From a virus (lineage: Duplodnaviria > Heunggongvirae > Uroviricota > Caudoviricetes): a stretch of DNA of 10,461 nt. Under the pieces are notes generated by a model. It worked only from the letters and a program-made list of their open reading frames with translations, did not search any database and was not told the origin of the DNA. The translations under genes and the position numbers were made by a program. Location of the stretch: the IMG/VR virus record IMGVR_UViG_2526164651_000009; one strand, 5' to 3'. Below are positions 1 to 10,461 of this stretch, one piece after another (positions within the stretch are counted from its first letter, which is position 1; each line of letters starts with the position of its first letter).

Positions 1-453
1 TTAGCAAAAATTAGCATCCTCCCCACCAGCCACCCGGTATACCTCTGATAAATCACGAACATTTTTCATGTCTGCTTTCCCGGACGTTTCCATCAGTGCG
101 TTAATATCATCCCCCGTATAGCGTGATTGCGCGACGATACCAGCCAGAGAGATAACCATAGCCCGGCATACCTGGTCTATCAGACGTAACCTGGTGTCAT
201 CATTCGAGAGGGTGTAAGACTTAACCTCAGCCACATTCCGTGGATAGTTGGCGTGCCATACCGCGACAGCTCCACATTCATCAACATCGCCGCTAAGGTA
301 GGTTTTTGCCACTCGGTTATTACCCGATAACGCAATTTCTACCTCCTGTATGCCGAAAAACCATGCGGCTATCGCATGACCTGCTTCATGTATTGCAAGA
401 TGTCTGGGCCAGCGATAGCTGCCGAACTCAATAATGATGGGGTGCGTACTCAT
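1..453 (-). CDS. Small putative zinc metallopeptidase-like protein (HEAGH motif), about 150 aa; function unknown
   Basis: ORF 1..531 on the minus strand with TAA at 1-3. Preferred start is the ATG at 453-451, preceded by GAGAGGGAAG and lying 10 nt downstream of the ssb stop; the track start at 531 would overlap ssb by 68 nt. The protein contains HEAGHAIAAWFFG, an HExxH zincin-type motif resembling the FtsH/M41 signature. Family assignment is by motif only. Confidence 0.5.
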   Translation of the reverse strand: MSTHPIIIEFGSYRWPRHLAIHEAGHAIAAWFFGIQEVEIALSGNNRVAKTYLSGDVDECGAVAVWHANYPRNVAEVKSYTLSNDDTRLRLIDQVCRAMVISLAGIVAQSRYTGDDINALMETSGKADMKNVRDLSEVYRVAGGEDANFC

Positions 454-463
454 ATCTTCCCTC

Positions 464-898
464 TCAGAATGGCGTTTCATCGTCGAATGGTGGGCGTTGG
501 TCGTATTCATCACGGGATGGCTGCTGCGCACGTCTCAGCGCGTCCGTTGCCTGTCCCTGCTGTCCTGCCTTCCCGCCGGGGCGTACCGTTCTGGCGCTGA
601 TCACACTGTCTGCAATCACCTGATACCCGGTCTGTATGCCACCGTCCTGCCCTGTCCACTGGTTAACCTGCATATTGCCCGCCACGCTAACAAGGTCGCC
701 TTTCTGGTGCTTCGCCAGCGCATCGGCCTGCTTCCCAAAAGCAATAACGCCCAGCCAGAAGGTTGACTCTCCCGCCTCTGCCGCATTACAGGGGAGCGAC
801 ACCGCCAGCCGCGCCATAGCCATGTTGTTACCGTTCGTTGTGGTGCGGGTCTGGGGATCTGCCACCAGCCGCCCGTATGCTGAAATTTGTGCTGTCAT
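464..898 (-). CDS. ssb: Single-stranded DNA-binding protein (SSB), 144 aa
   Basis: ATG at 898-896 preceded by GAGGGG about 6 nt upstream. OB-fold-like N-terminal region (FWLGVIAFGKQADALAKHQKGDLVSVAGNMQVNQWTGQDGG), a Gly/Gln-rich linker and the acidic C-terminal tail PPFDDETPF, which matches the conserved SSB tail (DDDIPF in E. coli SSB). Confidence 0.85.
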   Translation of the reverse strand: MTAQISAYGRLVADPQTRTTTNGNNMAMARLAVSLPCNAAEAGESTFWLGVIAFGKQADALAKHQKGDLVSVAGNMQVNQWTGQDGGIQTGYQVIADSVISARTVRPGGKAGQQGQATDALRRAQQPSRDEYDQRPPFDDETPF

Positions 899-986
899 TT
901 TCCCCTCACTGGATTATTAGTTTTGCTAATGACGATTTCTTAATGTGGGACACCTGCCGATTTTTTTTCATAGTAAGCAAAAATAG

Positions 987-1246
987 TGTTGTCTCTGTTG
1001 TCTTTGTTGTCTCACGGCTCTACAGGCCGCGCCACGTCTGGGTTTTGCTGAGACAACATTTGCAATTTCGTGTTGTCTCACCCGGCATAAATGTTGTCTC
1101 ACTGCCTGCCAGACTAAAAACACACTTTCGCCCTGTTGTCTCAAAATGGCTAAATGTTGTCTCGGTGTTGTCTCAGAAATTAAAATAAAATCCTTATAAA
1201 TCAATCTCAATTACAAATTGAGACAACAAAGACAACCGAGACAACA
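987..1246. repeat. Iteron array, probable replication origin: about 12 copies of the 9-mer TGTTGTCTC in both orientations plus an AT-rich tract
   Basis: Direct copies at 987-995, 996-1004 (TGTTGTCTT variant), 1005-1013, 1071-1079, 1092-1100, 1134-1142, 1155-1163 and 1166-1174. Inverted copies (GAGACAACA) at 1050-1058, 1220-1228 and 1238-1246, with a degenerate one at 1229-1237. Several direct copies are spaced 21 or 42 bp apart. An AT-rich tract lies at about 1175-1219. The array sits immediately downstream of the primase-helicase gene. Confidence 0.8.
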
Positions 1247-1271
1247 CTAAAACTACGCATGTGAAGAAATA

Positions 1272-4031
1272 TTATTTTTCTGGCTGGCTGCTTTCCTCCG
1301 CCATGAAATTGAGTACATAGACGCGAATCTGTCGCCCATCCTCCCTTACTCGCCCCTGATAGCCTCGCCCGCTCGTTGGTGGTGTAAGCATTCCTGCATT
1401 CTTTAGAACTTCGGCAAACTGTTTGGTATTGAAGCCCTTTGCAATCTCCTGCTCAAACGCTGCCGGGAAGGTGTAGAAAATTATCGGGTCGCCGTCGTGG
1501 TTCCCCTTCTTCCTGTACCCGGCTAAATCACGGATGGGTAAATCGCGCGGGTCATAACCCAGCGGCGCGAATCGACTCAGCCCATAGGCATTCAAAAACG
1601 CCTCCGTCTGCTCAATAATCTGCTGGTGCTCTTTGTTCCCCGTGCCGAACTCACGCAACCACGCATTGTAGCTGTGCTGTATCGCATCACGGCACGTTTG
1701 ATCATCCCAGCCAGTAACCACGCCACCCAGCAGTAAAGCAGCCTCCAGAATGGCGAACCTTGCCCCTACACGGTGAACCTGTTCCCCATAGTCGGCAGGA
1801 ATAAGACTGCGCCAGCGAGCTTCACAGTCACGAACGGTATCAATGGCCTGCTGCTGGTGGCCTGCAAGCCATCTGATCCACTCCCGCCCGGCAGCGCCGT
1901 GATTGCTCTGCCACGCGGATTTTAATGCGTCTGCATGGTCTTTCCCTGTCTGGTGCTCATGAAAGCGCACCGCCTTACTTAACGGGATATTCAGCAGGCG
2001 CACCAGTTGCCCCGCTTTTGTCTTGCGTCCTGCGGTGGCAATGAACGTTTCTAAATCCATTTCCCCGGTGCTGATTGCCACGGTACGCCAGCGTTTTAGA
2101 TCCCGGTTTCCGCCTTCTTTCGCGCCCTGCAATTTCCCCACGCCGTTAAACAGGGCATAGGCAGACTGAGAAACGCTTATCGGGTCTGCGCCCTGTCCGA
2201 CTTCATCCAGCGGCATCAGTCCGTCATTGTGGGCGGCGGCCTCGTTTATCAGCCCCAGCGCCGTCCCGTACCACGTCAGGCGCAAGGCATCAGGGTTCCC
2301 GTATAGACTGCTAGCCACGTTCTGCGTGGTTGTTTTCCCGGCGCTCGATTGCTCATAAAAATGAATCCCGAATCCGTCACGCTCTGCCACCCCGATTAAT
2401 GGCGCTGCCAGTGCTGCGGCAATGCCTGTCATCATCGCGTAGTTGCCGTATGCCAGCCGCGCGACACTGTTGCGCCAGCTTTCCGGCGTTCCTGCTACGG
2501 TATACCCGGCAGCGGCTGAACTGCGCCCGCTGAACAAAACAGGCCGCTCAGGTGTGCCGATGATTTCCCCGTCCGGCATGATGTATGCCCCGCACTGCCA
2601 GCCTGTAGCATGAGCAACGCGCCACAATTCACGCGAGCCGCTCCGCTGTAGCCAGTCGGCAAGGATCGCCCGTAAACTGCTTTTGGTCGTGACGTTAACC
2701 CCACCAGCTTTCAGGGTGCGCCAGCCTTCACGCTCGCCAATATCAGCCAGCGGGATAGCCGCTGTTGTCGGTATGCCTGCACCGAATGCCAGCCATGAGA
2801 TAATAAGATACTGATCTTTGTCGTCGCGTCCCGTGCCGATAACCTCCAACGGGGAACATAACCAGCTTTCAGCGTTGACGATCTCCCCGCTTTCCTTGTC
2901 CACCTTCGGCGTTACCCAGAAAACGCCATCTTTGCGGCTCTCAATGTGGGGTTTTAGTGGATCTTTCTCTGGATGGTCAGTTTTACCGCCCTCAATGGCT
3001 TGCAATCGCGGTTTCACGGCTTCCCCTTGAATCTGGTACATCGAATCGTTAAACGCAGCCGTAGCGACTTCCAGCCCGTTTTGCTGGCGGTAGTCGTCCC
3101 AGTCGGCTTTGTAGTCTGTCGGCGGCAGCGCCACCCAGCCAGCCACGGATAAGGCGGCTTTCTCTGCGGCATCTTTGCCCGTGTTCGCCTGGTCGTCCTG
3201 CTGGTGGTCGTTATCTGCGGCAATGATAATTTGCGACTGCGGGTGTTTCCGGCGCATTACTCCGGCAACGTGGATCAGGTTCCCGGCGTCAATTGCCGCC
3301 ACTGTAAGCGCGTCCGGGCGCATCAGGTGGACTGATAAAGTGGTTGCCAGCCCCTCGGCAATAATCACCGCCTGCGGCTGTTCCGGTGCGTTAACGGCGT
3401 GATATGCCCCGCGCTTTGCTGAACCTGTCAGGAGTCGCTTCTCTCCCTGCGGTGTAATGGTTTGCGCTGCTGCCACTGCGCCGGATTCGTCCACCAGCTC
3501 CAGCAATAACGAACCATCCGGCATTACCGGATATTTAAACCCGGTCAGCCCTTTTGATTGCAGGTAATCAGATTCTCCCTGTGTGGCACTCTGGCGCATT
3601 CCGGCATACAGACGGGCAAACGTAGCCCTTCGCTGCTCTGCATCCTCTGCTGCCTGTTTCTGGCGCTCCTGCTCACGCTGCTGGCGGTCAGCTTCCAGTT
3701 GCTCTCTTCTATGGCTCGCTGCCACCGGGTCGGTTTCCGCTGCCCGGTAATCAATACCCAGCACGTCAGCGGCAAGCTGTGCCGCCTCCGTAGTGTCGCA
3801 GTTGTTAACCCGCTTGATTAAATCCAGCCCGTCACCAGCGCCACACTGGTTGCAGATAAAGCTACCGCGCCCGTTGTCGTCGAATCTGAAACGGTCTTTT
3901 CCACCACATGCAGGGCATGGAGAATGGCGGCGCGATGAATCAGGCACGTCGATAGACAATCCAGCCAGCACATAAGGCCAGCGCCCGGCGGCGGCACTGG
4001 TCACTTCGCGGATAAGGTCGATATTACGCAT
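1272..4031 (-). CDS. Primase-helicase replication protein (N-terminal zinc ribbon, TOPRIM domain, C-terminal P-loop NTPase), 919 aa
   Basis: ATG at 4031-4029 with AGGGGG about 6 nt upstream. Zinc-ribbon motif CPACGG...FICNQCG near the N-terminus; TOPRIM-like IIAEG and IIIAADNDHQQDD (DxD); Walker A-like EQSSAGKTT and Walker B-like LMPLDEVG in the C-terminal half. The start overlaps the stop of the upstream gene in the 8-nt sequence ATGCGTAA. Confidence 0.85.
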   Translation of the reverse strand: MRNIDLIREVTSAAAGRWPYVLAGLSIDVPDSSRRHSPCPACGGKDRFRFDDNGRGSFICNQCGAGDGLDLIKRVNNCDTTEAAQLAADVLGIDYRAAETDPVAASHRREQLEADRQQREQERQKQAAEDAEQRRATFARLYAGMRQSATQGESDYLQSKGLTGFKYPVMPDGSLLLELVDESGAVAAAQTITPQGEKRLLTGSAKRGAYHAVNAPEQPQAVIIAEGLATTLSVHLMRPDALTVAAIDAGNLIHVAGVMRRKHPQSQIIIAADNDHQQDDQANTGKDAAEKAALSVAGWVALPPTDYKADWDDYRQQNGLEVATAAFNDSMYQIQGEAVKPRLQAIEGGKTDHPEKDPLKPHIESRKDGVFWVTPKVDKESGEIVNAESWLCSPLEVIGTGRDDKDQYLIISWLAFGAGIPTTAAIPLADIGEREGWRTLKAGGVNVTTKSSLRAILADWLQRSGSRELWRVAHATGWQCGAYIMPDGEIIGTPERPVLFSGRSSAAAGYTVAGTPESWRNSVARLAYGNYAMMTGIAAALAAPLIGVAERDGFGIHFYEQSSAGKTTTQNVASSLYGNPDALRLTWYGTALGLINEAAAHNDGLMPLDEVGQGADPISVSQSAYALFNGVGKLQGAKEGGNRDLKRWRTVAISTGEMDLETFIATAGRKTKAGQLVRLLNIPLSKAVRFHEHQTGKDHADALKSAWQSNHGAAGREWIRWLAGHQQQAIDTVRDCEARWRSLIPADYGEQVHRVGARFAILEAALLLGGVVTGWDDQTCRDAIQHSYNAWLREFGTGNKEHQQIIEQTEAFLNAYGLSRFAPLGYDPRDLPIRDLAGYRKKGNHDGDPIIFYTFPAAFEQEIAKGFNTKQFAEVLKNAGMLTPPTSGRGYQGRVREDGRQIRVYVLNFMAEESSQPEK

Positions 4032-4365
4032 GGTTGCCCCCTGCCACGGTCGCGCCCATGTCTTTAACCATGCTTTGCCATATCTCGCGCCCGACGTCAG
4101 TCAATCCGTCCTTAGTGACGCAACGCTCAAGAAGCTCGACCCCCACGGTTTCCCACTGCGGGTAGGATACTTTCATGGCTGCCAGTGTGTAGCTATCGAT
4201 CAGGCTGCGAACGCCTTTTACTCCATTGACGATTTCCACACGGACGGCGAGGCCGTCCGCATCAACCATGAAATAGTCCCCGCCGCTGGTGGAGGTAATG
4301 TGGTTATACAGTGCCGATGCATACTTATTCGCCAGCGCATTCAGTCGGAAATTTTTAGTAATCAT
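4024..4365 (-). CDS. Hypothetical protein, 113 aa
   Basis: ATG at 4365-4363 preceded by GAGGGGG. The stop overlaps the primase start (ATGCGTAA). No recognisable motifs. Confidence 0.65.
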   Translation of the reverse strand: MITKNFRLNALANKYASALYNHITSTSGGDYFMVDADGLAVRVEIVNGVKGVRSLIDSYTLAAMKVSYPQWETVGVELLERCVTKDGLTDVGREIWQSMVKDMGATVAGGNHA

Positions 4366-4374
4366 GTCACCCCC

Positions 4375-5001
4375 TCAGTGCGCCAGCGGCATTTCAGGCC
4401 AGCCGTTTTCATCCAGTTCAGCTATAAAGCTGTTGTGAAGTTCAGCAAGCGTTTCACGCCCGAACGGGGTCAACTCGCCGCGCTCCGTGTCGATCATGGC
4501 CTGATAAAAAACAATGGCGTTCGCTGTTCCCTGCTCAATGCCGTAGCGCTCAACCATTGCGCCCTCCATGTTGTTAGCCATCGCCAGACGTTCCGCGAAC
4601 GGGTAAACCACAATCCCCGCCGTGCCATTGGAGTAAATCGCCACCTGCGATGAAGTGTCGTCAGACTCAGTTACCGTGGTTGTGCCGTTTTCGCGCTTCA
4701 TCTCAGAAATGAACGTCGCAGCAATCAGCCAGCGCCACATAGTGACGTTATGCTGCGCGGTGAAGTCGAACCAGCCACGCGCCCCGTCATCAGCAACGGC
4801 AAAATGAATGGCGTATCCGATATCTGGCTTATCGTCGTACTCTCCGGCGTCAAGGCCGTTCACGGCGCTCTCGTAGCTGATAAGAGCAACCTGCTCATAT
4901 CCCCCGGCATCATTGCGGGTCATGATATTGACGCCGTGCGGTGTGGCTTCGGCGTGTAATAAGTCGGCATTTCCCGATTTAATGGTCGGTGCGTTGCTCA
5001 T
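4375..5001 (-). CDS. Hypothetical protein, 208 aa
   Basis: ATG at 5001-4999 preceded by GGAGGG about 7 nt upstream. The start overlaps the stop of the upstream gene in ATGA. No recognisable motifs. Confidence 0.7.
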   Translation of the reverse strand: MSNAPTIKSGNADLLHAEATPHGVNIMTRNDAGGYEQVALISYESAVNGLDAGEYDDKPDIGYAIHFAVADDGARGWFDFTAQHNVTMWRWLIAATFISEMKRENGTTTVTESDDTSSQVAIYSNGTAGIVVYPFAERLAMANNMEGAMVERYGIEQGTANAIVFYQAMIDTERGELTPFGRETLAELHNSFIAELDENGWPEMPLAH

Positions 5002-5261
5002 GCGCTGCCCTCCGCATCAATTCTGGCTATATCGACAATCATCAGGACTTTACTCAGCCAGCAATACGCGATGGCTGCTTGCTCAACTTCGAGGAGTGGT
5101 AATAAATCGGTCATAACGTGAGCCAGCCCATTGCGGGCGCGGGTCATGCGTTCTGCTGTTCGGTCTGCCAGCGTAAAATCATCCGGGCATGCTTCTTTAC
5201 GAGATAGCATCGATTCGGCTTCCAGATCTGCCGGGTGGCGATAGATGGTATTTATGTTCAT
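4998..5261 (-). CDS. Hypothetical protein, 87 aa
   Basis: ATG at 5261-5259 preceded by AGGGAGGG. ATGA overlap with the upstream gene stop and again with the downstream gene start. Confidence 0.6.
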   Translation of the reverse strand: MNINTIYRHPADLEAESMLSRKEACPDDFTLADRTAERMTRARNGLAHVMTDLLPLLEVEQAAIAYCWLSKVLMIVDIARIDAEGSA

Positions 5262-5572
5262 TTGCCCGCCCTCCCTTTGGCTTCTTTTTCACTGATTGAG
5301 CGCAAGAATGCGGCGTTTGCAGCGCTATCGTTCAGCGCCCGCGCAACTTCTCCGATATGTCCCAGCATTGCGCCTAATCTGTACATATCAGCCTTAGCGC
5401 TTTCCTCCGGGTAGCCATCGCTACCAGCCGCCCAGAACATGAGGCTACCAATGGCACTTACGCCCAGCATTAAATCATCCACGGCATCACTGGCGCGGCT
5501 CTCAATTCCGTTCAGATCATCAGGTGTACAACCATCAAATTTGCAGGACACTAAATCGTCATACATGCTCAT
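5258..5572 (-). CDS. Hypothetical acidic protein, 104 aa
   Basis: ATG at 5572-5570 preceded by GAGGTGG. ATGA overlaps at both ends. Confidence 0.6.
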   Translation of the reverse strand: MSMYDDLVSCKFDGCTPDDLNGIESRASDAVDDLMLGVSAIGSLMFWAAGSDGYPEESAKADMYRLGAMLGHIGEVARALNDSAANAAFLRSISEKEAKGRAGK

Positions 5573-5748
5573 GCCGCCACCTCACGAACGCGGGTAATCT
5601 GGATGTGGGAAAGGCGTTCATTTCTGGCCTGATTTAGCGCCTCAGCTTTGGCGCTGATCGCGCTGCGGGCGTCAACGATATAAACGAACTCGACTAATTC
5701 GCCGCTCTGGGCGGTGGCGCATCCTGCAACACGGAAGTAATTAAGCAT
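5569..5748 (-). CDS. Hypothetical small protein, 59 aa
   Basis: Preferred start is the ATG at 5748-5746 with AGGGGG about 6 nt upstream; the track start at 5778 is a TTG and would overlap the Icd-like gene by 38 nt. The start overlaps the Icd-like stop in ATGCTTAA. Confidence 0.5.
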   Translation of the reverse strand: MLNYFRVAGCATAQSGELVEFVYIVDARSAISAKAEALNQARNERLSHIQITRVREVAA

Positions 5749-5932
5749 GTGCGCCCCCTGTGCGAATACGTCCGGCAAAAAAGCAAACGTGATCCCGCGC
5801 CAGAATGCGGCGGGCTTCCTGCTCAGTCTCTGCGGCGATATGGTGAATTTTGGCGGTAATTGTCGGCATATCGCGGCGAACTGCTGCGATAATCCAGATA
5901 AATTGCGGTTTTTGGGTAGGGGTAGTAGCCAT
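5741..5932 (-). CDS. Icd-like small protein (host cell-division inhibitor Icd family, tentative), 63 aa
   Basis: C-terminal 63 codons of track ORF 5741..6493. ATG at 5932-5930 is preceded by a strong SD, AAGGAGG, 8 nt upstream; the longer ORF has no such signal and contains a terminator-like hairpin. The family name is from recalled resemblance to Icd-like proteins of P4-like prophages, not from a search. Confidence 0.6.
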   Translation of the reverse strand: MATTPTQKPQFIWIIAAVRRDMPTITAKIHHIAAETEQEARRILARDHVCFFAGRIRTGGAHA

Positions 5933-5940
5933 TATGGCAG

Positions 5941-6035
5941 CCTCCTTTGTGTTTAAGGAGTCACCGCCTGACGTCTCAATGTCATGATTGGCGGTGACGT
6001 CAGCGGGGTTGAGACTACCGGACACAAAGGAAACC
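5941..6035 (-). ncRNA. Candidate C4-type antisense RNA or structured regulatory leader upstream of the Icd-like gene
   Basis: A perfect 10-nt inverted repeat: 6022-6031 (ACACAAAGGA on plus) is the reverse complement of 5943-5952 (TCCTTTGTGT), and the latter covers most of the SD of the Icd-like gene. Between them is a 9-bp stem (5960-5968 GTCACCGCC with 5990-5998 GGCGGTGAC). A local 6-bp hairpin (5942-5947 with 5955-5960) also includes the SD. Exact RNA ends cannot be determined from sequence. Confidence 0.3.
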
Positions 6036-6121
6036 GGCCTATCCGAAGATAGCCCCACTGACGCCACCATAGATACAGTACGGGCAAGGCCGCTGATTTG
6101 ATGTGCGTGGTGATCGGACAC

Positions 6122-6144
6122 AAAAAAAGACGCTTTCGGCGTCT
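6122..6144 (-). terminator. Candidate rho-independent terminator for the upstream alpA-side operon
   Basis: On the minus strand: stem AGACGC, loop CGAAA, stem GCGUCU, followed by six U (plus-strand A-run at 6122-6127). The stem is short (6 bp) but GC-rich. Confidence 0.35.
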
Positions 6145-6282
6145 GTGTCGCCCTTAGTGTGTTCGGGGTCTCAATCCCGGTTGCTGATTTTGCAGCAACG
6201 CTTGGACTATAACAGCTTTTCTCTGCTAGGTGGTCATACCAGATAAAACCGTAACCCTTTAAGAGTTTTCCCTGTGCACGGC

Positions 6283-6435
6283 TCACCATCTTTTTGTTGA
6301 GGGTAAGCGCCTCGCGTACTGGTAACGGAACTCCGGGCGCTGCGGTATCAATATCAGGTTTTGTAAGGTTGCAGATGTCAACTTTTGACAACATGCCAGC
6401 CAGATTAAAGGCTTCTTTCTGGGCGGCAGGTTCAT
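6283..6435 (-). CDS. Possible small basic ORF, 50 aa (MNLPPRKKPLIWLACCQK...), uncertain
   Basis: ATG at 6435-6433 overlaps the TGA of the upstream DUF4222-like gene (ATGA coupling); TGA at 6285-6283. No independent SD and the composition is unusual. Not in the supplied track because it is under 60 aa. Confidence 0.15.
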   Translation of the reverse strand: MNLPPRKKPLIWLACCQKLTSATLQNLILIPQRPEFRYQYARRLPSTKRW

Positions 6436-6614
6436 TCAGTATCACGGCGCACCTCCACGAACTCATTAACGAATCTCTCCAAAGGCTGAACACATGGCGA
6501 CTGATAGCCCTCGCGGTAAAAGGTCACTCGGTTATGCTCGACGCGCTGTACGGTCACTACAGCCCCGTGACTGTCCTTGTAACGGCTTCCCGGCATCGGA
6601 TTATGGTTACGCAT
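6432..6614 (-). CDS. Small protein, DUF4222-like (tentative), 60 aa
   Basis: ATG at 6614-6612 with GGAGG about 7 nt upstream. The start overlaps the upstream stop in ATGCGTAA. The sequence pattern (GAVVTVQRV...VTFYREGYQSPCVQPLERF) resembles small DUF4222 proteins of P4-like prophages, from recall only. Confidence 0.55.
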   Translation of the reverse strand: MRNHNPMPGSRYKDSHGAVVTVQRVEHNRVTFYREGYQSPCVQPLERFVNEFVEVRRDTE

Positions 6615-7440
6615 GGTTTACCTCCAGACGCTTAGCGAGCCAGCGTTGCGACAGGCGGGTGAGTTCTCCTTTGCGCTGCTCATATTCCATGCCCATATCA
6701 ATTAACGTGATATTGGTGCTTTCGAGATAGGCGAGGTGTTCAAGCTGTGCTGCGTTCATGCTGTCCCGTGGTTCGCCAGTAATGCCATTTGCCTGCGCCC
6801 ACTGCTTCGCCGTCATGCCACCCAGCACGATACGGGCGATCATGTTGCTCTCGTTGCTGTAGTGGCGCTGCTGCGTCGTTTTACCCAGCTCGGCACGGGC
6901 CATATTCAGCGCATCGCACATTGGCTTAAAATTGTTTGCGGCACTGATACGGGCTTTTAGCTGGCGACGATAGCGGGCGGCGATTTCAGGCACGCTACGC
7001 TGTAATTCTTCCTCGCACTGGATGAAATAACGGCGGATAGCGCGGCCCTGTTCGGTGCGTTCGACCATCGCCAGTTCTTTCGCCATTCCGACACTTAACA
7101 GATAGTCTTTGCCGGGTCTGCCAGACTGTTTAATCTTGCTGTAAGCCACGCCATTCGGGCTTTTCCCCAGATTTGGGGAAATTGTTTTATGGACTGAGTA
7201 ATCGTGCCCAATGGTGAAGTCATATTCAGAGATGCGATCAGTGATCCATGTAGAGAAGTCTTTTCCCACGCCCAACGCTTTGTGTAACGCTTTGGCGCTA
7301 ACAATATTGGTTTCACGCCCACCGATATGACCAGGAATAACCGGGACAATTGTGGCAAATTCATTACCGTTAATTGTGCCCTGATAGGCGTTCAGATGAG
7401 GGGCGGCCTCAGAAATTAATCTGCTTTTTTCGATGTTCAT
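6607..7440 (-). CDS. Phage antirepressor-like regulatory protein (AntA-type N-terminal domain, tentative), 277 aa
   Basis: ATG at 7440-7438 with GGAG about 8 nt upstream. N-terminal region SAKALHKALGVGKDFSTWITDRI resembles the AntA/ORF6N-type antirepressor signature (F-S/N-D/T-W-I..RI). The C-terminal half is unassigned. Confidence 0.5.
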   Translation of the reverse strand: MNIEKSRLISEAAPHLNAYQGTINGNEFATIVPVIPGHIGGRETNIVSAKALHKALGVGKDFSTWITDRISEYDFTIGHDYSVHKTISPNLGKSPNGVAYSKIKQSGRPGKDYLLSVGMAKELAMVERTEQGRAIRRYFIQCEEELQRSVPEIAARYRRQLKARISAANNFKPMCDALNMARAELGKTTQQRHYSNESNMIARIVLGGMTAKQWAQANGITGEPRDSMNAAQLEHLAYLESTNITLIDMGMEYEQRKGELTRLSQRWLAKRLEVNHA

Positions 7441-7452
7441 TTTCAGTCTCCG

Positions 7453-7884
7453 TTAGGCGGCGGTGAGATTGTCCGGGTATAGATTGAGAATGTCGGCAAT
7501 TTCAGGCTGAGAAAGTCCCTGATAGCCGCCAGCGTCGGCGTTATGGTTCACAAGCCGAATAACTTTTAGAACGTCACCGCGCCCGGTAAAGCGATAGCGT
7601 AAATGTGACCCTATCCCGTCGGGGTTCTTTTCGTCTATACGCTCAAGCTGAATATCAAGCCTGCGCTCTAACTCGCTGGCGTAGTTCCTTCCAGACGAAA
7701 GGCGGCAATAACGCAGAATATCGTTTTCTGTCCATCCCTCTATACCAGTACGCAGCATATAGACGCGGGCGCGGTGTTTCTTTGGGGTACGCCTAGGTAC
7801 TTGTACCGGGCTGGTGGTCGGCGTAATATCAGACGTGCGAATATCTGAGTTAGCCGCCTGTAATGGGCGGTTTTTCTTTTTCAT
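7453..7884 (-). CDS. Hypothetical basic protein, 143 aa
   Basis: ATG at 7884-7882 overlaps the alpA stop by 1 nt (TGATG); GGTGG lies upstream. The track start at 7887 is a TTG. Basic, proline/threonine-rich N-terminus; no recognised domain. Confidence 0.6.
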   Translation of the reverse strand: MKKKNRPLQAANSDIRTSDITPTTSPVQVPRRTPKKHRARVYMLRTGIEGWTENDILRYCRLSSGRNYASELERRLDIQLERIDEKNPDGIGSHLRYRFTGRGDVLKVIRLVNHNADAGGYQGLSQPEIADILNLYPDNLTAA

Positions 7885-8093
7885 CAAGCCACCTTTCCCC
7901 GACGTTCTGCCAGCCAGTTGTTAATCTCTACCGCATCAAAGGCGGTAATCTTCTCGCCCAGCTTTACCGGGCGCGGCAGTCGCTTATCTCGAACCCAACG
8001 ATCAATGGTTGCTACATGGACGCCCAGCGCTTGAGCCAGGCGGAAGCGGCGAATATAGCCGCTTGTGGGAAGTGGTGATTGGTGTTCTGTCAT
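7884..8093 (-). CDS. alpA: AlpA-family phage transcriptional regulator (helix-turn-helix), 69 aa
   Basis: Preferred start is the ATG at 8093-8091 with AAGGAG about 9 nt upstream; the track start at 8117 has no SD. Motifs RLAQALGVHVATIDRWV...PRPVKLG...EINNWL match the AlpA pattern. It is the first gene after the int-cargo block, as is typical for P4-like and PICI elements. Confidence 0.8.
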   Translation of the reverse strand: MTEHQSPLPTSGYIRRFRLAQALGVHVATIDRWVRDKRLPRPVKLGEKITAFDAVEINNWLAERRGKVA

Positions 8094-8194
8094 ATGTCCC
8101 GTAACTCCTTTCTGCATCGTTACGGGAATACTGAATAAAAAACCAGTGTTTATCTATACAGAATCAAAATATTAAAAATCCGAATAGATTCAGA
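8094..8194 (-). promoter_or_regulatory. AT-rich leader and probable promoter region of the alpA operon, with a hairpin around the alpA SD
   Basis: A 9-bp inverted repeat, 8097-8105 (TCCCGTAAC) with 8119-8127 (GTTACGGGA), has a 13-nt loop containing the SD AAGGAG. Further upstream are AT-rich repeats of AATCTGAA/TTCAGATT (8189-8196 and 8221-8228). No confident -35/-10 hexamers could be assigned by eye. Confidence 0.4.
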
Positions 8195-9046
8195 TTATTG
8201 AAAATCTATCAATTTCAGAAAATCTGAAAACCTCATGTTTTTTATGTGGGGGTTATCTGCGTAGTATTTTTTTAATTCCACTCGACTAAGCACATCTCTC
8301 ACAGACTCTGCAAATGGTTTCACAGTGTCACGGATGTGAGCGCCACCCTTAACCGTTCCGTCAGGTAGTGGCTCAGGGAACAGTAGACGCGCATAAAGCT
8401 CATTGGACACCATAATGCCGTTAATCCTCGCCCATCTTGATATATCAAGATATGGGATTATCCGGTAATGATGGATCTTGGCAATTGTTGACGCCCCGAA
8501 CCTCTTTTTTTCTTTGACGGCACTTTCAGGTATACCGGTCTGAACCCTCCACCTTTTTAGCAATGTTTTAAATCCAGCTATCATTTCGTCATCGTCCATC
8601 AAATCAAGCCCGATATCGACAAATATCCCCGTTTTACCTTCTGACCTTGGATCATCGGTATCATATAGCATCGACTGGTTGTATATATCGCAATTTTCTA
8701 TGTCTGCTCTTGCTTCAATTCTGCCATTATCCGTTATCGTCATACGCCCATCACTCAGGCAGCTGTTAACAAAAGCGCAAATCATCGAAAAAGGTAGAGG
8801 CATAATTCCTCTGTCATCAAAGGATAGACTACCCTCCGGCAAATCCTCATCCCAGAGGGTAACATCCGTTATAAGGGGGAATGGAATAATTGAGAAAACC
8901 TCATCTTTTCGTAACTCAAGACTATCAGAGTGATAACTCATCATGAACATCTCGCTTACCACATGGTTGACACTTAGATCCAACACGTAGTCGTACCTGT
9001 CCAGTGAAAACCATTCCATCACATCGCCGTATTTAGCCCGTTTCAT
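8195..9046 (-). CDS. Hypothetical protein, 283 aa; AT-richer cargo gene between integrase and alpA, function unknown (candidate accessory or defence gene)
   Basis: ATG at 9046-9044 with AAGGTGG about 7 nt upstream; TAA at 8197-8195. The gene looks AT-richer than its neighbours (not computed). No Walker, HExxH or nuclease motif was recognised by eye. Confidence 0.75.
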   Translation of the reverse strand: MKRAKYGDVMEWFSLDRYDYVLDLSVNHVVSEMFMMSYHSDSLELRKDEVFSIIPFPLITDVTLWDEDLPEGSLSFDDRGIMPLPFSMICAFVNSCLSDGRMTITDNGRIEARADIENCDIYNQSMLYDTDDPRSEGKTGIFVDIGLDLMDDDEMIAGFKTLLKRWRVQTGIPESAVKEKKRFGASTIAKIHHYRIIPYLDISRWARINGIMVSNELYARLLFPEPLPDGTVKGGAHIRDTVKPFAESVRDVLSRVELKKYYADNPHIKNMRFSDFLKLIDFQ

Positions 9047-9141
9047 AACGCCACCTTTTACGCTGCGCCTTATTTTGTGATTGAGCCAGGCGGTAAGGCT
9101 TCCCGCTTTTCGCCCCGTCGGGCTAGACTCAATCTATTCAG

Positions 9142-10401
9142 TTAGTTCGCCCTTCTGAGAGGCGTCACGTTGTAATCTTCGCCCTTCTCCAGAGCCACCA
9201 GCAAGCCCGCCCACTGTGTTAACGCAGCCCGTCGCTCGTCAAAGTATTGGTGACGGTTATAAATCCCCTCTACGCCCTTAATGCGATGATTGAGGCATCG
9301 TTCCGCCACTACCGGATCAACGCCCAGCGCTGCTAAATGGGTGCGGGCCGTGCGTCGGAAGTCGTGAATCGTGAAATTAGGCACATCCGGTATTTCGGCG
9401 CGAACCTTAGCCAGTGCTACGGGCAGGGTGCTTTCCTGAATATGGGGGATCATGCGGTTTTGCATCTTTCTGGCTGGCAGTACCCATGCGCTGTTGCATG
9501 AGAACGTTTTAAGCTCTCTCAGCCATTCGACGGCTGGGGAAGGTAGAGGTATATCAATAGGGTCTCCGTTTTTGCTGCGTTCTTCCGGCAAATGCCATAC
9601 CGCACCATCTAAATCAAACTCTTCCCATCGTGCGGCGCATAATTCCATTTTGCGGACGCATAACGCTAACAGTAATTTGAACGTGATTTCGTTCTGGCGA
9701 CTGAATCCCTTAGCCGTGCGCATGGCTTTGAATAGCTGGATTAACTCATCGCGGGTTAACCAGCGGTCACGGGCAACTTCTTTCCCTCCGGCGTCTGCCA
9801 CCTCAAAGGCTGAACAGGGGTTAATCTCTAGCGCGTGCCGTTTGATTCCGTAGTCGAATATGCGGCGCGTCCATCTCAGCACGTCCGTTGCTATGGTCGA
9901 CGCTCCACGGTCAACAATACCTTTCAGCATGTCATCGATATGGCGCGGTTTCACGTCCTCTACCTTCATGCTGCCAATGCAGGGGTTTATATCTTTGTCG
10001 ATACGGCGGCGGAGTATATCGGGGTGCTTCCAGCGCGGGAGGATCTGACGCTCAAAGTATTCAGCGGCAAGCTCTGAAACGCGCATAGCGTTCTTCTCTG
10101 CTTCCATCTTCGCCAGTGCTTCGGTTTTGCGCTTCTGCTTCTCTCCTGCAACGTCATAGCCCAGCGCAACGCGAGCCGATAGCTCTTTGGCTGTCTCTCT
10201 GGCCTTTGATAGTGATAGCTCGCTATACGAACCAATTAGCATGGCGCGGGACTTCCCTGCGAGTTTATAGCGGAATCTCCATGTGGGGGTTTTGTCGGCT
10301 TCACGGTAACGTAGGTATAAACCGTTACCGTCTGCCCGCCCCTCGAATCGCTCTCCGCTCTTAATCCATGCGCGGATCTGCATGTCTGTTAGTTTTGGCA
10401 T
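9142..10401 (-). CDS. int: P4-type tyrosine integrase (site-specific recombinase), about 419 aa
   Basis: Preferred start is the ATG at 10401-10399 (MPKLTDMQIRA..., matching the usual P4-type integrase N-terminus); the ORF remains open to the window edge at 10461. The C-terminal catalytic region carries HDFRRT and the active-site tyrosine context GIYNRHQY. Confidence 0.9.
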   Translation of the reverse strand: MPKLTDMQIRAWIKSGERFEGRADGNGLYLRYREADKTPTWRFRYKLAGKSRAMLIGSYSELSLSKARETAKELSARVALGYDVAGEKQKRKTEALAKMEAEKNAMRVSELAAEYFERQILPRWKHPDILRRRIDKDINPCIGSMKVEDVKPRHIDDMLKGIVDRGASTIATDVLRWTRRIFDYGIKRHALEINPCSAFEVADAGGKEVARDRWLTRDELIQLFKAMRTAKGFSRQNEITFKLLLALCVRKMELCAARWEEFDLDGAVWHLPEERSKNGDPIDIPLPSPAVEWLRELKTFSCNSAWVLPARKMQNRMIPHIQESTLPVALAKVRAEIPDVPNFTIHDFRRTARTHLAALGVDPVVAERCLNHRIKGVEGIYNRHQYFDERRAALTQWAGLLVALEKGEDYNVTPLRRAN

Positions 10402-10461
10402 TTTGCGAATATCCAAACTTTGAATAGGGGGTGTACCCAAAGCAATGTACCCAAACCTCAT

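Follow-up and report, generated by a model that had tools for sequence, protein, structure and literature searches.

A probable phage-inducible chromosomal island with a predicted antisense RNA switch at the 3' end of Escherichia coli yicC

We have analysed a stretch of 10,461 nucleotides (nt) of viral DNA, IMG/VR record IMGVR_UViG_2526164651_000009, which is referred to here in its whole length as the window and which makes up most of an element integrated into the chromosome of Escherichia coli. The element is very probably a phage satellite of the phage-inducible chromosomal island (PICI) type, of the same kind as the islands EcCIMP1 and EcCIRM13514, and it resides in the 3' end of yicC. 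Its integration site, the layout of its operon, its RNA module and its replicon can be read directly from the sequence. To judge from the comparisons below, the element is a mosaic, because an integration module of the EcCIRM13514 type is joined to a core of the EcCIMP1 type and to cargo of its own. It is an ordinary member of an already catalogued kind, and earlier papers already sketch an RNA switch in PICI-like islands. Mageeney et al. (PMC10111431) remarked that profiles of the C4 and isrK RNAs detect relatives of CI and seqA in a number of Gram-negative PICIs; the module itself had therefore been noticed before. The present analysis contributes a comparative co-variation test, at the level of sequence, of the predicted function of this switch.

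What places the element among the PICIs? Gram-negative PICIs, as described by Fillol-Salom et al. 2018 (PMC6092414), combine a unidirectional module of int, alpA and replication genes with specific attachment (att) sites, an origin lying 3' of the primase gene with two sets of iterons around an AT-rich region, the absence of structural and lytic genes, and a size of 12-15 kb. Gene calls for the window were made from a mechanical list of open reading frames (ORFs) and scans of Pfam, PHROGs and NCBIfam. They give 15 genes, all on the minus strand, covering ~94% of the sequence and in many cases overlapping their neighbours by 1-14 nt, an operon-like layout. Integrase, AlpA, primase-helicase and 12 other genes follow one another in the canonical order, and the original prediction, made from the letters of the window, had correctly read this order as int, cargo, alpA, regulators, Icd-like gene, primase-helicase, origin and ssb on one strand. 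The origin comprises 11 iterons in inverted sets around positions 1176-1218, a layout that matches Fig. 2 of PMC6092414. Neither the 15 window genes nor the four genes of the element outside it match a capsid, portal, terminase, tail, holin or lysin family (Pfam, PHROGs), which bears out the earlier remark that capsid, terminase and tail genes are missing, and at 13,230 bp the complete element falls within the size range.

Extent of the element and its site in yicC

Exact-protein look-ups with the single-stranded DNA-binding protein (SSB) and the DUF6387 protein of the window led to two public E. coli contigs from which the complete element was read. One of them (L011; GCA_000213735.2) is 100% identical to the window over all 10,461 bases, and the other (L004; GCA_014000175.1) is 99.96% identical and spans the whole element (BLASTN). 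The length given above runs from core to core between two copies of CAGATTCA in L004. The window therefore covers 10.46 of 13.23 kb, or ~79% of the element, and leaves out ~127 bp on the int side up to yicC and ~2.6 kb on the other side. The window had been taken for the replication and regulation half of a satellite, with the reservation that it might not cover the rest. The reservation was justified and the description of the content was apt; the word 'half' was not, as there is no structural half elsewhere. The ends of the window coincide with gene ends, namely the start of a 439-amino-acid (aa) int ORF and the stop of the gene for p150. The 2.6-kb side contributes genes for a 203-aa protein, a 61-aa protein and a PRiA4_ORF3 protein, and also, on the other strand, a gene of 119 aa.

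The element sits between yicC and dinD, and the genes on the host side are the housekeeping genes rph-yicC at one end and dinD-yicG-ligB at the other, with no phage structural module in either flank. A generic search for long direct repeats across the element gave chance-level pairs only, so the junctions were located by alignment to the empty K-12 site and to the junctions of sister elements. The element replaces the last 21 nt of yicC. At the left junction (...GAGCAGATTCAGAATATCGAGTAA|GCTATC) a new, synonymous end of yicC comes from the element itself. The right junction retains the displaced original end, which is intact in L001 (CAGATTCAGAACATTGAATAA), short of 1-2 nt in EcCIRM13514 and short of ~8 nt in the lineage of the window (CAGATTCAAGTAA); comparison with the attR of L001 and L016 places this eroded remnant on the dinD side at L004 13517-13529. 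The att repeat that the original prediction had expected is thus present, with CAGATTCA as its core, and the suggested location at the 3' end of a tRNA gene has to give way to the 3' end of yicC, as no tRNA was found in the window or in L004. Because the flanks consist of housekeeping genes and an att repeat was found, the two outcomes named in advance as speaking against a satellite, full structural modules in the flanks or a lack of att repeats, did not occur.

The tyrosine integrase (419 aa; 9142..10401, minus strand) carries Arm-DNA-bind_3, Phage_int_M and Phage_integrase domains and matches phrog_1; its open frame extends to 10461. Two GGTGTACCCA repeats on the minus strand at 10430..10453 belong to a set of four near int, and another two are found close to the other end of the element. 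In L004 the motif has 23 matches, against 12.3 expected and a number that none of 100 shuffles reached, and its exact and one-mismatch copies cluster at L004 416-469 and 13433-13454. The repeats are placed as expected for arm-type sites and are putative binding sites of the integrase. Integrases of this family turn up in 384 of 5,426 complete E. coli genomes. The att sites of PICIs are described as never taken by prophages (PMC6092414); at yicC, each of the 13 inserted occupants inspected is satellite-like.

Two further sequences encode an SSB identical to that of the window. In L003 (GCA_033031435.1) the element is also at yicC, but it adjoins yicG and capsule genes, without dinD. In L007 (GCA_053762605.1) the integrase is a different one, and the element lies downstream of a gene for a GTPase (MMR_HSR1, FeoB_N, KH_dom-like), possibly der. 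The occurrence of one and the same SSB with different neighbours points to a shuffling of modules between integration modules.

RNA switch and replication module

An Rfam search of the window returned four matches above their gathering scores, all on the minus strand. Three of them lie inside the ORF annotated as a 234-aa Ash/Icd-like protein (5741..6445, minus strand; NCBIfam NF033153 Icd-like domain, aa 182-229). They are a C4 or P4-CI-type antisense RNA (RF01695) at 6074..5987, with 82.1 bits against a gathering score of 45, isrK at 6199..6123 (71.1 bits against 50) and the c4-a1b1 target motif at 6212..6160 (52.8 bits against 46.7). The last two make up a leader RNA with the upstream targets (6123..6212, minus strand), equivalent to seqA of P4 and ending in an intrinsic terminator (6144..6123; terminator scan). 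The antisense RNA exposes two specificity boxes, UCCUUUGUGU at 6032..6023 and GUCUCAA at 6015..6009. Each has a complementary box in the leader (TTGAGAC at 6174..6168 and ACACACTAAGG at 6162..6152) and another just 5' of a short icd-like ORF (TTGAGAC at 5979..5973 and ACACAAAGGA at 5952..5943). This downstream part (5741..5979, minus strand) lies within the same long ORF (6445..5741). The ACACAAAGGA target overlaps the Shine-Dalgarno sequence AAGGAGG (5947..5941), a strong one, ahead of the ATG at 5932, from which 63 codons run to a stop at 5741; their product is 82.5% identical to a separately annotated 64-aa Icd-like protein of EcCIMP1.

The sequence makes it clear that the window carries an RNA immunity module of the P4 CI / P1 C4 type, the expression and processing of the RNA being predicted only. 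In P1 (C4, with boxes a' and b' and targets a1b1 and a2b2) and in P4 (CI, with seqB and the targets seqA and seqC), pairing of the antisense RNA blocks translation and gives premature termination upstream of the controlled genes; PMC10111431 cites Sabbattini et al. 1995 for this. The immI locus of P1 and P7 (c4 - icd - ant) resembles the arrangement found here in its a'/b' boxes, its a1b1 and a2b2 targets and a target that lies over the ribosome-binding site of a short icd-like ORF. Unlike in immI, the antirepressor gene of the element is upstream of the RNA module, and the genes placed under control are those of replication, not ant.

Five elements (the window, L003, L007, EcCIMP1 and P4) were compared for co-variation. 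The second box is different in all five and the loop box occurs in four variants, and both target sets change together with them. In the 5x5 matrices of duplex energies, each row has its most stable duplex at the cognate pair, whichever of the two targets is considered. The C4 and isrK models also match EcCIMP1 and two further relatives, and in P4 itself they match CI (L019 8507..8420) and the seqA leader, respectively; neither has a match at gathering score in EcCICFT073 or EcCIRM13514. The element offers a comparative case in which a P4-type antisense switch with diversified specificities appears to guard the replication operon of PICI-like islands, and the switch would be a testable handle on the silence of such islands and on their avoidance of cross-talk.

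The locus had been foreseen as an Icd-like gene. A 63-aa icd-like ORF is indeed present; most of the locus is an RNA immunity locus ahead of it. Public annotations of the long ORF, 234-303 aa in length, read 'Ash family' or 'host cell division inhibitor Icd-like', and most of what matches Pfam Phage_ASH (aa 95-195) or resembles the 'cI ORF' of P4 falls on the RNA genes. An alignment of six homologous long ORFs shows good conservation of the final 63 codons and poor conservation of the remainder, in which the frame is open in six relatives, indels are many and EcCIMP1 has a pseudogene. Because it overlaps three RNA elements and only its last 63 codons are well conserved, the long Ash ORF may be an annotation artefact, or else a nested gene. 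Annotation pipelines accordingly label an RNA locus as an 'Ash/Icd-like protein' and the island as a cluster of hypothetical proteins.

Downstream of the switch come five overlapping small genes of unknown function, p59, p104, p87, p208 and p113 (4024..5748, minus strand), among which three families of unknown function (phrog_6805, phrog_1515 and phrog_37628) were matched, and they lead into the gene for a 919-aa primase-helicase (1272..4031, minus strand). This protein consists of a Zn-ribbon, a Toprim domain and DUF927 (Pfam) and matches the DNA primase family phrog_1139 with 591 bits. Directly 3' of it, between the primase gene and ssb, lies the replication origin (984..1250), built from iterons TGTTGTCTC/GAGACAACA. 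With one mismatch allowed, GAGACAACA occurs 11 times at 987-1246 (1.8 expected; none of 200 shuffles reaches 11). Three copies run one way, followed by the AT-rich core (1176-1218), inverted copies and then more copies. The 144-aa SSB (464..898, minus strand; Pfam SSB, phrog_44) is encoded next.

The 450 nt 3' of the primase gene were scanned in 44 full-length primase relatives from different species. In 38 of the 44 this stretch holds at least four copies of one 9-mer, typically as 2-3 copies, an AT-rich segment ~50-65 nt past the primase gene and inverted copies at ~97-135 nt, and eleven classes of iteron are seen. The GAGACAACA class recurs in Shimwellia, Enterobacter and Kosakonia, with primases 89-93% identical to that of the window. 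As the layout is kept while the iterons change, these sequences support a working pair of initiator and origin whose specificity is diversifying.

Relatives of the primase are found in 148 species-level genomes across Enterobacterales, and a search for the full primase in bona fide phages found none. Near one end of the 106-kb record 'Klebsiella phage P12620-1' (PQ569648.1, ~95.9-100.8 kb) there are homologues of AntA (35%) and of the primase (68%), and two 2-kb records of 'Escherichia phage ECO95 1-6-1' from E. coli O157:H7 (OR845527.1 and OR845563.1) are made up of such genes; all three may be satellite DNA co-assembled with phage DNA or packaged beside it. A contig labelled Chryseobacterium sp. 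18061 (L025; CACSKA010000004.1) has a primase 84% identical to that of the window and an enterobacterial GTTGGTTCA iteron origin. Its label is probably due to assembly contamination or mislabelling.

Satellite status and alternative explanations

How might such an island behave in the cell? By analogy with P4 and P1, the antisense RNA would keep the island quiescent by holding its replication operon silent. Paired with the leader boxes and with the boxes 5' of the icd-like ORF, it would prevent translation and cause premature termination, and the primase operon would stay off until upstream transcription overwhelmed the RNA block. A helper phage in lytic growth would then raise the expression of alpA, as analogy with EcCICFT073 and EcCIMP1 suggests. 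Self-activating AlpA would act with Int in excision and would drive the rightward operon past the RNA block; the primase-helicase, assisted by SSB, would fire the adjacent iteron origin on the circle, and concatemeric island DNA would be packaged into particles made by the helper. More speculatively, the antirepressor might act on the repressor of a resident helper, as epsilon of P4 does. The AlpA-family regulator of the window, a helix-turn-helix protein of 69 aa (7884..8093, minus strand; Pfam Phage_AlpA, phrog_66), is presumed to be the master activator and excision factor by analogy with the role described for AlpA (PMC6092414, PMC11773190). The antirepressor is of the AntA/AntB type (277 aa; 6607..7440, minus strand; Pfam AntA, phrog_5817 and phrog_377, the latter anti-repressor Ant).

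Several points weigh against the assignment to the PICIs. Induction, the helper, packaging and transfer are attributed to the element by analogy, helper-dependent induction, packaging and transfer, together with interference with the helper, having been shown for relatives only, EcCIMP1 and EcCICFT073 (PMC11773190, PMC6092414). SatelliteFinder calls a PICI on at least four of five components: integrase, regulator, primase-replicase, capsid morphogenesis and small terminase (PMC10085698). By component count the element has three of the five (int, alpA and primase) and is a 'Type C' set, and such sets may, according to PMC10085698, be defective or other kinds of element. The element yields no BLASTP homologue of RppA (c1503), matches to the lambda cosN pattern no more often than chance, and neither a capsid-remodelling gene nor one for the small terminase TerS. 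Redirection of packaging of the Rpp type, through a homologue of RppA, RppB or RppC and a lambda-like cosN, was therefore not recognised in the element, nor were the own capsid, portal, protease, head-tail connector and terminase genes of a capsid-forming PICI (Pfam, PHROGs). In the lineage of the window the exact att repeat is down to 8 bp, with the loss of ~8 nt from the remnant. Finally, transfer of EcCIMP1 amounts to only ~5x10^3 particles per ml, and this island carries P22-like ejection genes that are absent from the element.

These points would suit an integrative island that excises and perhaps replicates but is no satellite, whether it is a Type C set gone defective or an island spread by another route. 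No recognisable gene for packaging, interference or a capsid was detected, the authors of SatelliteFinder hold sets of int, alpA and primase to be uncertain, and the exact att repeat is short and the attR remnant eroded. We nevertheless consider this clearly unlikely. None of the 19 ORFs of the complete element is disrupted, both the RNA switch and the origin show conservation and co-variation with their partner sequences, near-identical copies of the element are listed in many assemblies, and Pfam scans detected no relaxase or oriT-type protein family among the window proteins. Moreover, phage induction and transduction have been shown for the closest relative, which shares the backbone and the Type C composition of the element. 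EcCIMP1, from E. coli MP1, circularises only when the P22-like phage Kapi1 is present, is transduced by Kapi1 at low frequency and needs both alpA and int for excision and transduction; it has no capsid or terminase genes and would score as 'Type C' according to its authors (PMC11773190).

Could the window instead belong to a strict P4-like satellite, a parasite of a P2-type helper whose sid-delta-psu operon the window happens to miss? The P4 prophage has the same order of int, accessory genes, vis, immunity and, further on, alpha, and the C4 and isrK models match P4 as well as the element. When all 19 element proteins were compared with the P4 proteome (BLASTP, phmmer), counterparts emerged in Int (26% identical), Vis/AlpA (weak; phmmer 5e-5), alpha, whose N-terminal primase half is matched by the N-terminal 331 aa of the window primase (34% over 338 aa), and the former 'cI ORF' (40% over 107 aa). 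Both have an arm-type integrase, a regulator of the Vis/AlpA family and, at the head of an operon ending in the primase, a CI/C4 antisense RNA with complementary boxes upstream and downstream. However, the helicase half is not homologous to that of alpha, being DUF927 and not D5-like, and the origin, which follows the primase gene immediately in the manner of PICIs, is not split into ori and crr. The same comparison gave no match for Sid, Delta, Psu or Epsilon, a search of the element for the P2/P4 cos gave none beyond chance, and no plasmid-state functions as in P4 were identified. P4-like satellites have seven core components, int, psu, delta, sid, alpA, epsilon and alpha (PMC10085698, PMC8628076), and strict membership fails because the element has three of them (PMC10085698). 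The complete sequence largely refutes a P4-like satellite, which we regard as highly improbable. The original prediction had left P4-like and PICI-like open; with sid, delta, psu and epsilon absent, the site of EcCIRM13514 and the backbone of EcCIMP1, it is the second of these that holds.

An ordinary prophage, with the window as its early or regulatory end, or a decayed prophage is scarcely credible: antirepressor, Icd-like, AlpA and integrase genes occur in temperate phages too, and 49 nt of antA are 96% identical to Stx (Shiga toxin) phages, but the flanking sequence refutes it, as housekeeping genes of the chromosome lie no more than 130 bp from one end of the window and 2.6 kb from the other. 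The total of 13.2 kb, the precise junctions against the empty K-12 site and the lack of any phage record with a DNA match longer than 49 nt or of a bona fide phage with the full primase also speak against it.

The preferred reading thus remains a PICI-type satellite of the EcCIMP1/EcCIRM13514 kind. It is conceivable, though doubtful, that the EcCIMP1-like lineage is a distinct family of satellites rather than a reduced PICI, characterised by a P4-type RNA switch, an alpha-like replication operon, a front of AlpA and antirepressor and the lack of a gene for packaging redirection of any known type. If so, helpers would be hijacked by an undescribed route, perhaps via p143 or p208/p113, and the cargo between int and alpA (DUF6387) and after ssb (an HExxH protein) would be anti-phage or helper-modulating genes. 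Type C satellites number thousands in enterobacterial genomes and are left unclassified by automated tools, and EcCIMP1 is the only close relative that has been tested.

Accessory genes and comparison with known PICIs

Beyond the modules discussed so far, the window holds genes that appear to be exchangeable. A 283-aa DUF6387 protein (8195..9046, minus strand; Pfam PF19924) is encoded between int and alpA, with a GC content of 42.6% against 53.7% in the rest of the window. Across six relatives this slot is filled by four unrelated protein families, and five of the six have 40-45% GC against ~54% in the backbone. An int-alpA RNA motif (9067..9133, minus strand; Rfam RF02996, 59.5 bits against a gathering score of 35.8) begins 9 nt past the int stop and is separated from alpA by the DUF6387 gene; the same motif is present behind int in L003 and L007. 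DUF6387 has just 19 homologous clusters in a database of 5.8 billion proteins, its predicted fold is a poor model (pLDDT 65) with no usable structural match, and it has no PADLOC match. It recurs in the int-alpA slot of a yicC-inserted Yersinia island and beside int-alpA in Pantoea ananatis, and relatives were located at L099 7001-7852 and L098 7001-7852.

After ssb the window element encodes p150, a 150-aa accessory protein (1..453, minus strand), where L003, L005, L006, L007 and L008 have PerC. Its HEAGH (HExxH) motif is part of the sequence HEAGHAIAA, which we take to resemble the zinc site of FtsH/M41. In Pfam p150 reaches a sub-threshold match to Peptidase_M50B, and it has no PHROG or PADLOC match and no sequence match in the PDB. 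It is plausible that DUF6387 and p150 are accessory or defence genes. PADLOC, run on the cargo and unknown genes and on the alternative cargo of the relatives, returned just a partial PDC-S22 on AntA and PDC-M59A in L006. In this sister element the candidate-defence gene PDC-M59A (E = 6e-103) stands beside a Fic-domain gene in the 3' accessory region (L006 12068-13551), and its presence there makes the region downstream of ssb a variable cargo zone too.

The gene for p143, a lineage-specific protein (7453..7884, minus strand), overlaps the alpA stop by one base at its start. The protein has 614 homologous clusters, and the best 120 of the 614 are all at least 81% identical, across Enterobacterales. 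The conservation among these best 120 is unusual and reaches from E. coli to Pectobacterium, Serratia and Cedecea. The AlphaFold2 (AF2) model of p143 (pLDDT 73.6) has a winged-helix-like core of three helices and a hairpin, with weak structural matches and no fold match to Rpp or TerS; p143 is possibly a winged helix. DUF4222 (60 aa; 6432..6614, minus strand; Pfam PF13973) has homologues in EcCIMP1 and EcCICFT073. The antA stretch mentioned above (window 7133-7181) finds its 96% match in a hypothetical gene carried by 38 Stx-converting and related phages of Escherichia and Shigella; it is the sole DNA match of the window in 50,697 phage records (megablast) and hints at exchange with lambdoid phages. 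A scan for sigma-70 promoters found fewer sites than in shuffled sequences and is uninformative.

How does the element compare with the known PICIs? A comparison with satellite and PICI listings, proposed as a check of the original prediction, led to two islands, one for the site and one for the backbone. EcCICFT073 (PMC6092414, PMC6739421) serves as the model of the Gram-negative PICIs. Its unidirectional order from int and alpA to pri, ori and ssb, its iterons flanking an AT-rich core and its homologues of DUF4222, the Icd-like protein and SSB are shared with the element. It has in addition a homologue of a capsid protein, a head-decoration gene, RppA and a lambda-type cos, none of which was found in the window element, and its integrase is only 26% identical. 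With 57-61% identity, the SSB of the window resembles those of both EcCICFT073 and EcCIRM13514.

EcCIRM13514 accounts for the integration module. It is the PICI listed at yicC-dinD with the core GAGCAGATTCAA (PMC6092414 Table S1), and the element has the same site and core (GAGCAGATTCAA / CAGATTCA). The integrases are 85.6% identical, AlpA and SSB 61% each and one terminal gene 64% (BLASTP), and these four are the only homologous genes. The general order, int, cargo, alpA, antirepressor, icd-like gene, primase, ssb and accessory genes, is also alike, whereas the primase of EcCIRM13514 is of another type (607 aa, no BLASTP match), its cargo differs, and ProQ/FinO and PerC come after its ssb.

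The core, by contrast, is that of EcCIMP1 (PMC11773190). Both islands have the order alpA, p143, AntA, DUF4222, isrK/C4 RNAs, icd-like gene, small genes, p113, Toprim/DUF927 primase and inverted-iteron origin, and both end in p61, PRiA4_ORF3 and p119. Identities are 79% for p143, 91% for AntA, 70% for DUF4222, 83% for the icd-like protein, 60% for p87, 64% for p208, 95% for p113, 79% for the primase and 97-100% for the three terminal genes. Neither has capsid, terminase or Rpp genes, and both count as SatelliteFinder Type C by component number. The integrase of EcCIMP1, however, is 28% identical to that of the window, and its site is a tRNA-Thr gene near proA, not the 3' end of yicC; the two AlpA proteins share only 33% identity. 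Differences extend to the iterons (GTTGGTTCA against GAGACAACA) and to the specificity boxes of the antisense RNAs. EcCIMP1 measures 20 kb and carries genes for P22-like ejection proteins, a second alpA and PerC but no ssb, while the window element has ssb, DUF6387 and the HExxH protein, which are absent from EcCIMP1. Taken together, the comparisons suggest that islands of this kind are assembled from parts, here the int/att module of one PICI, the regulation and replication core of another and exchangeable cargo.

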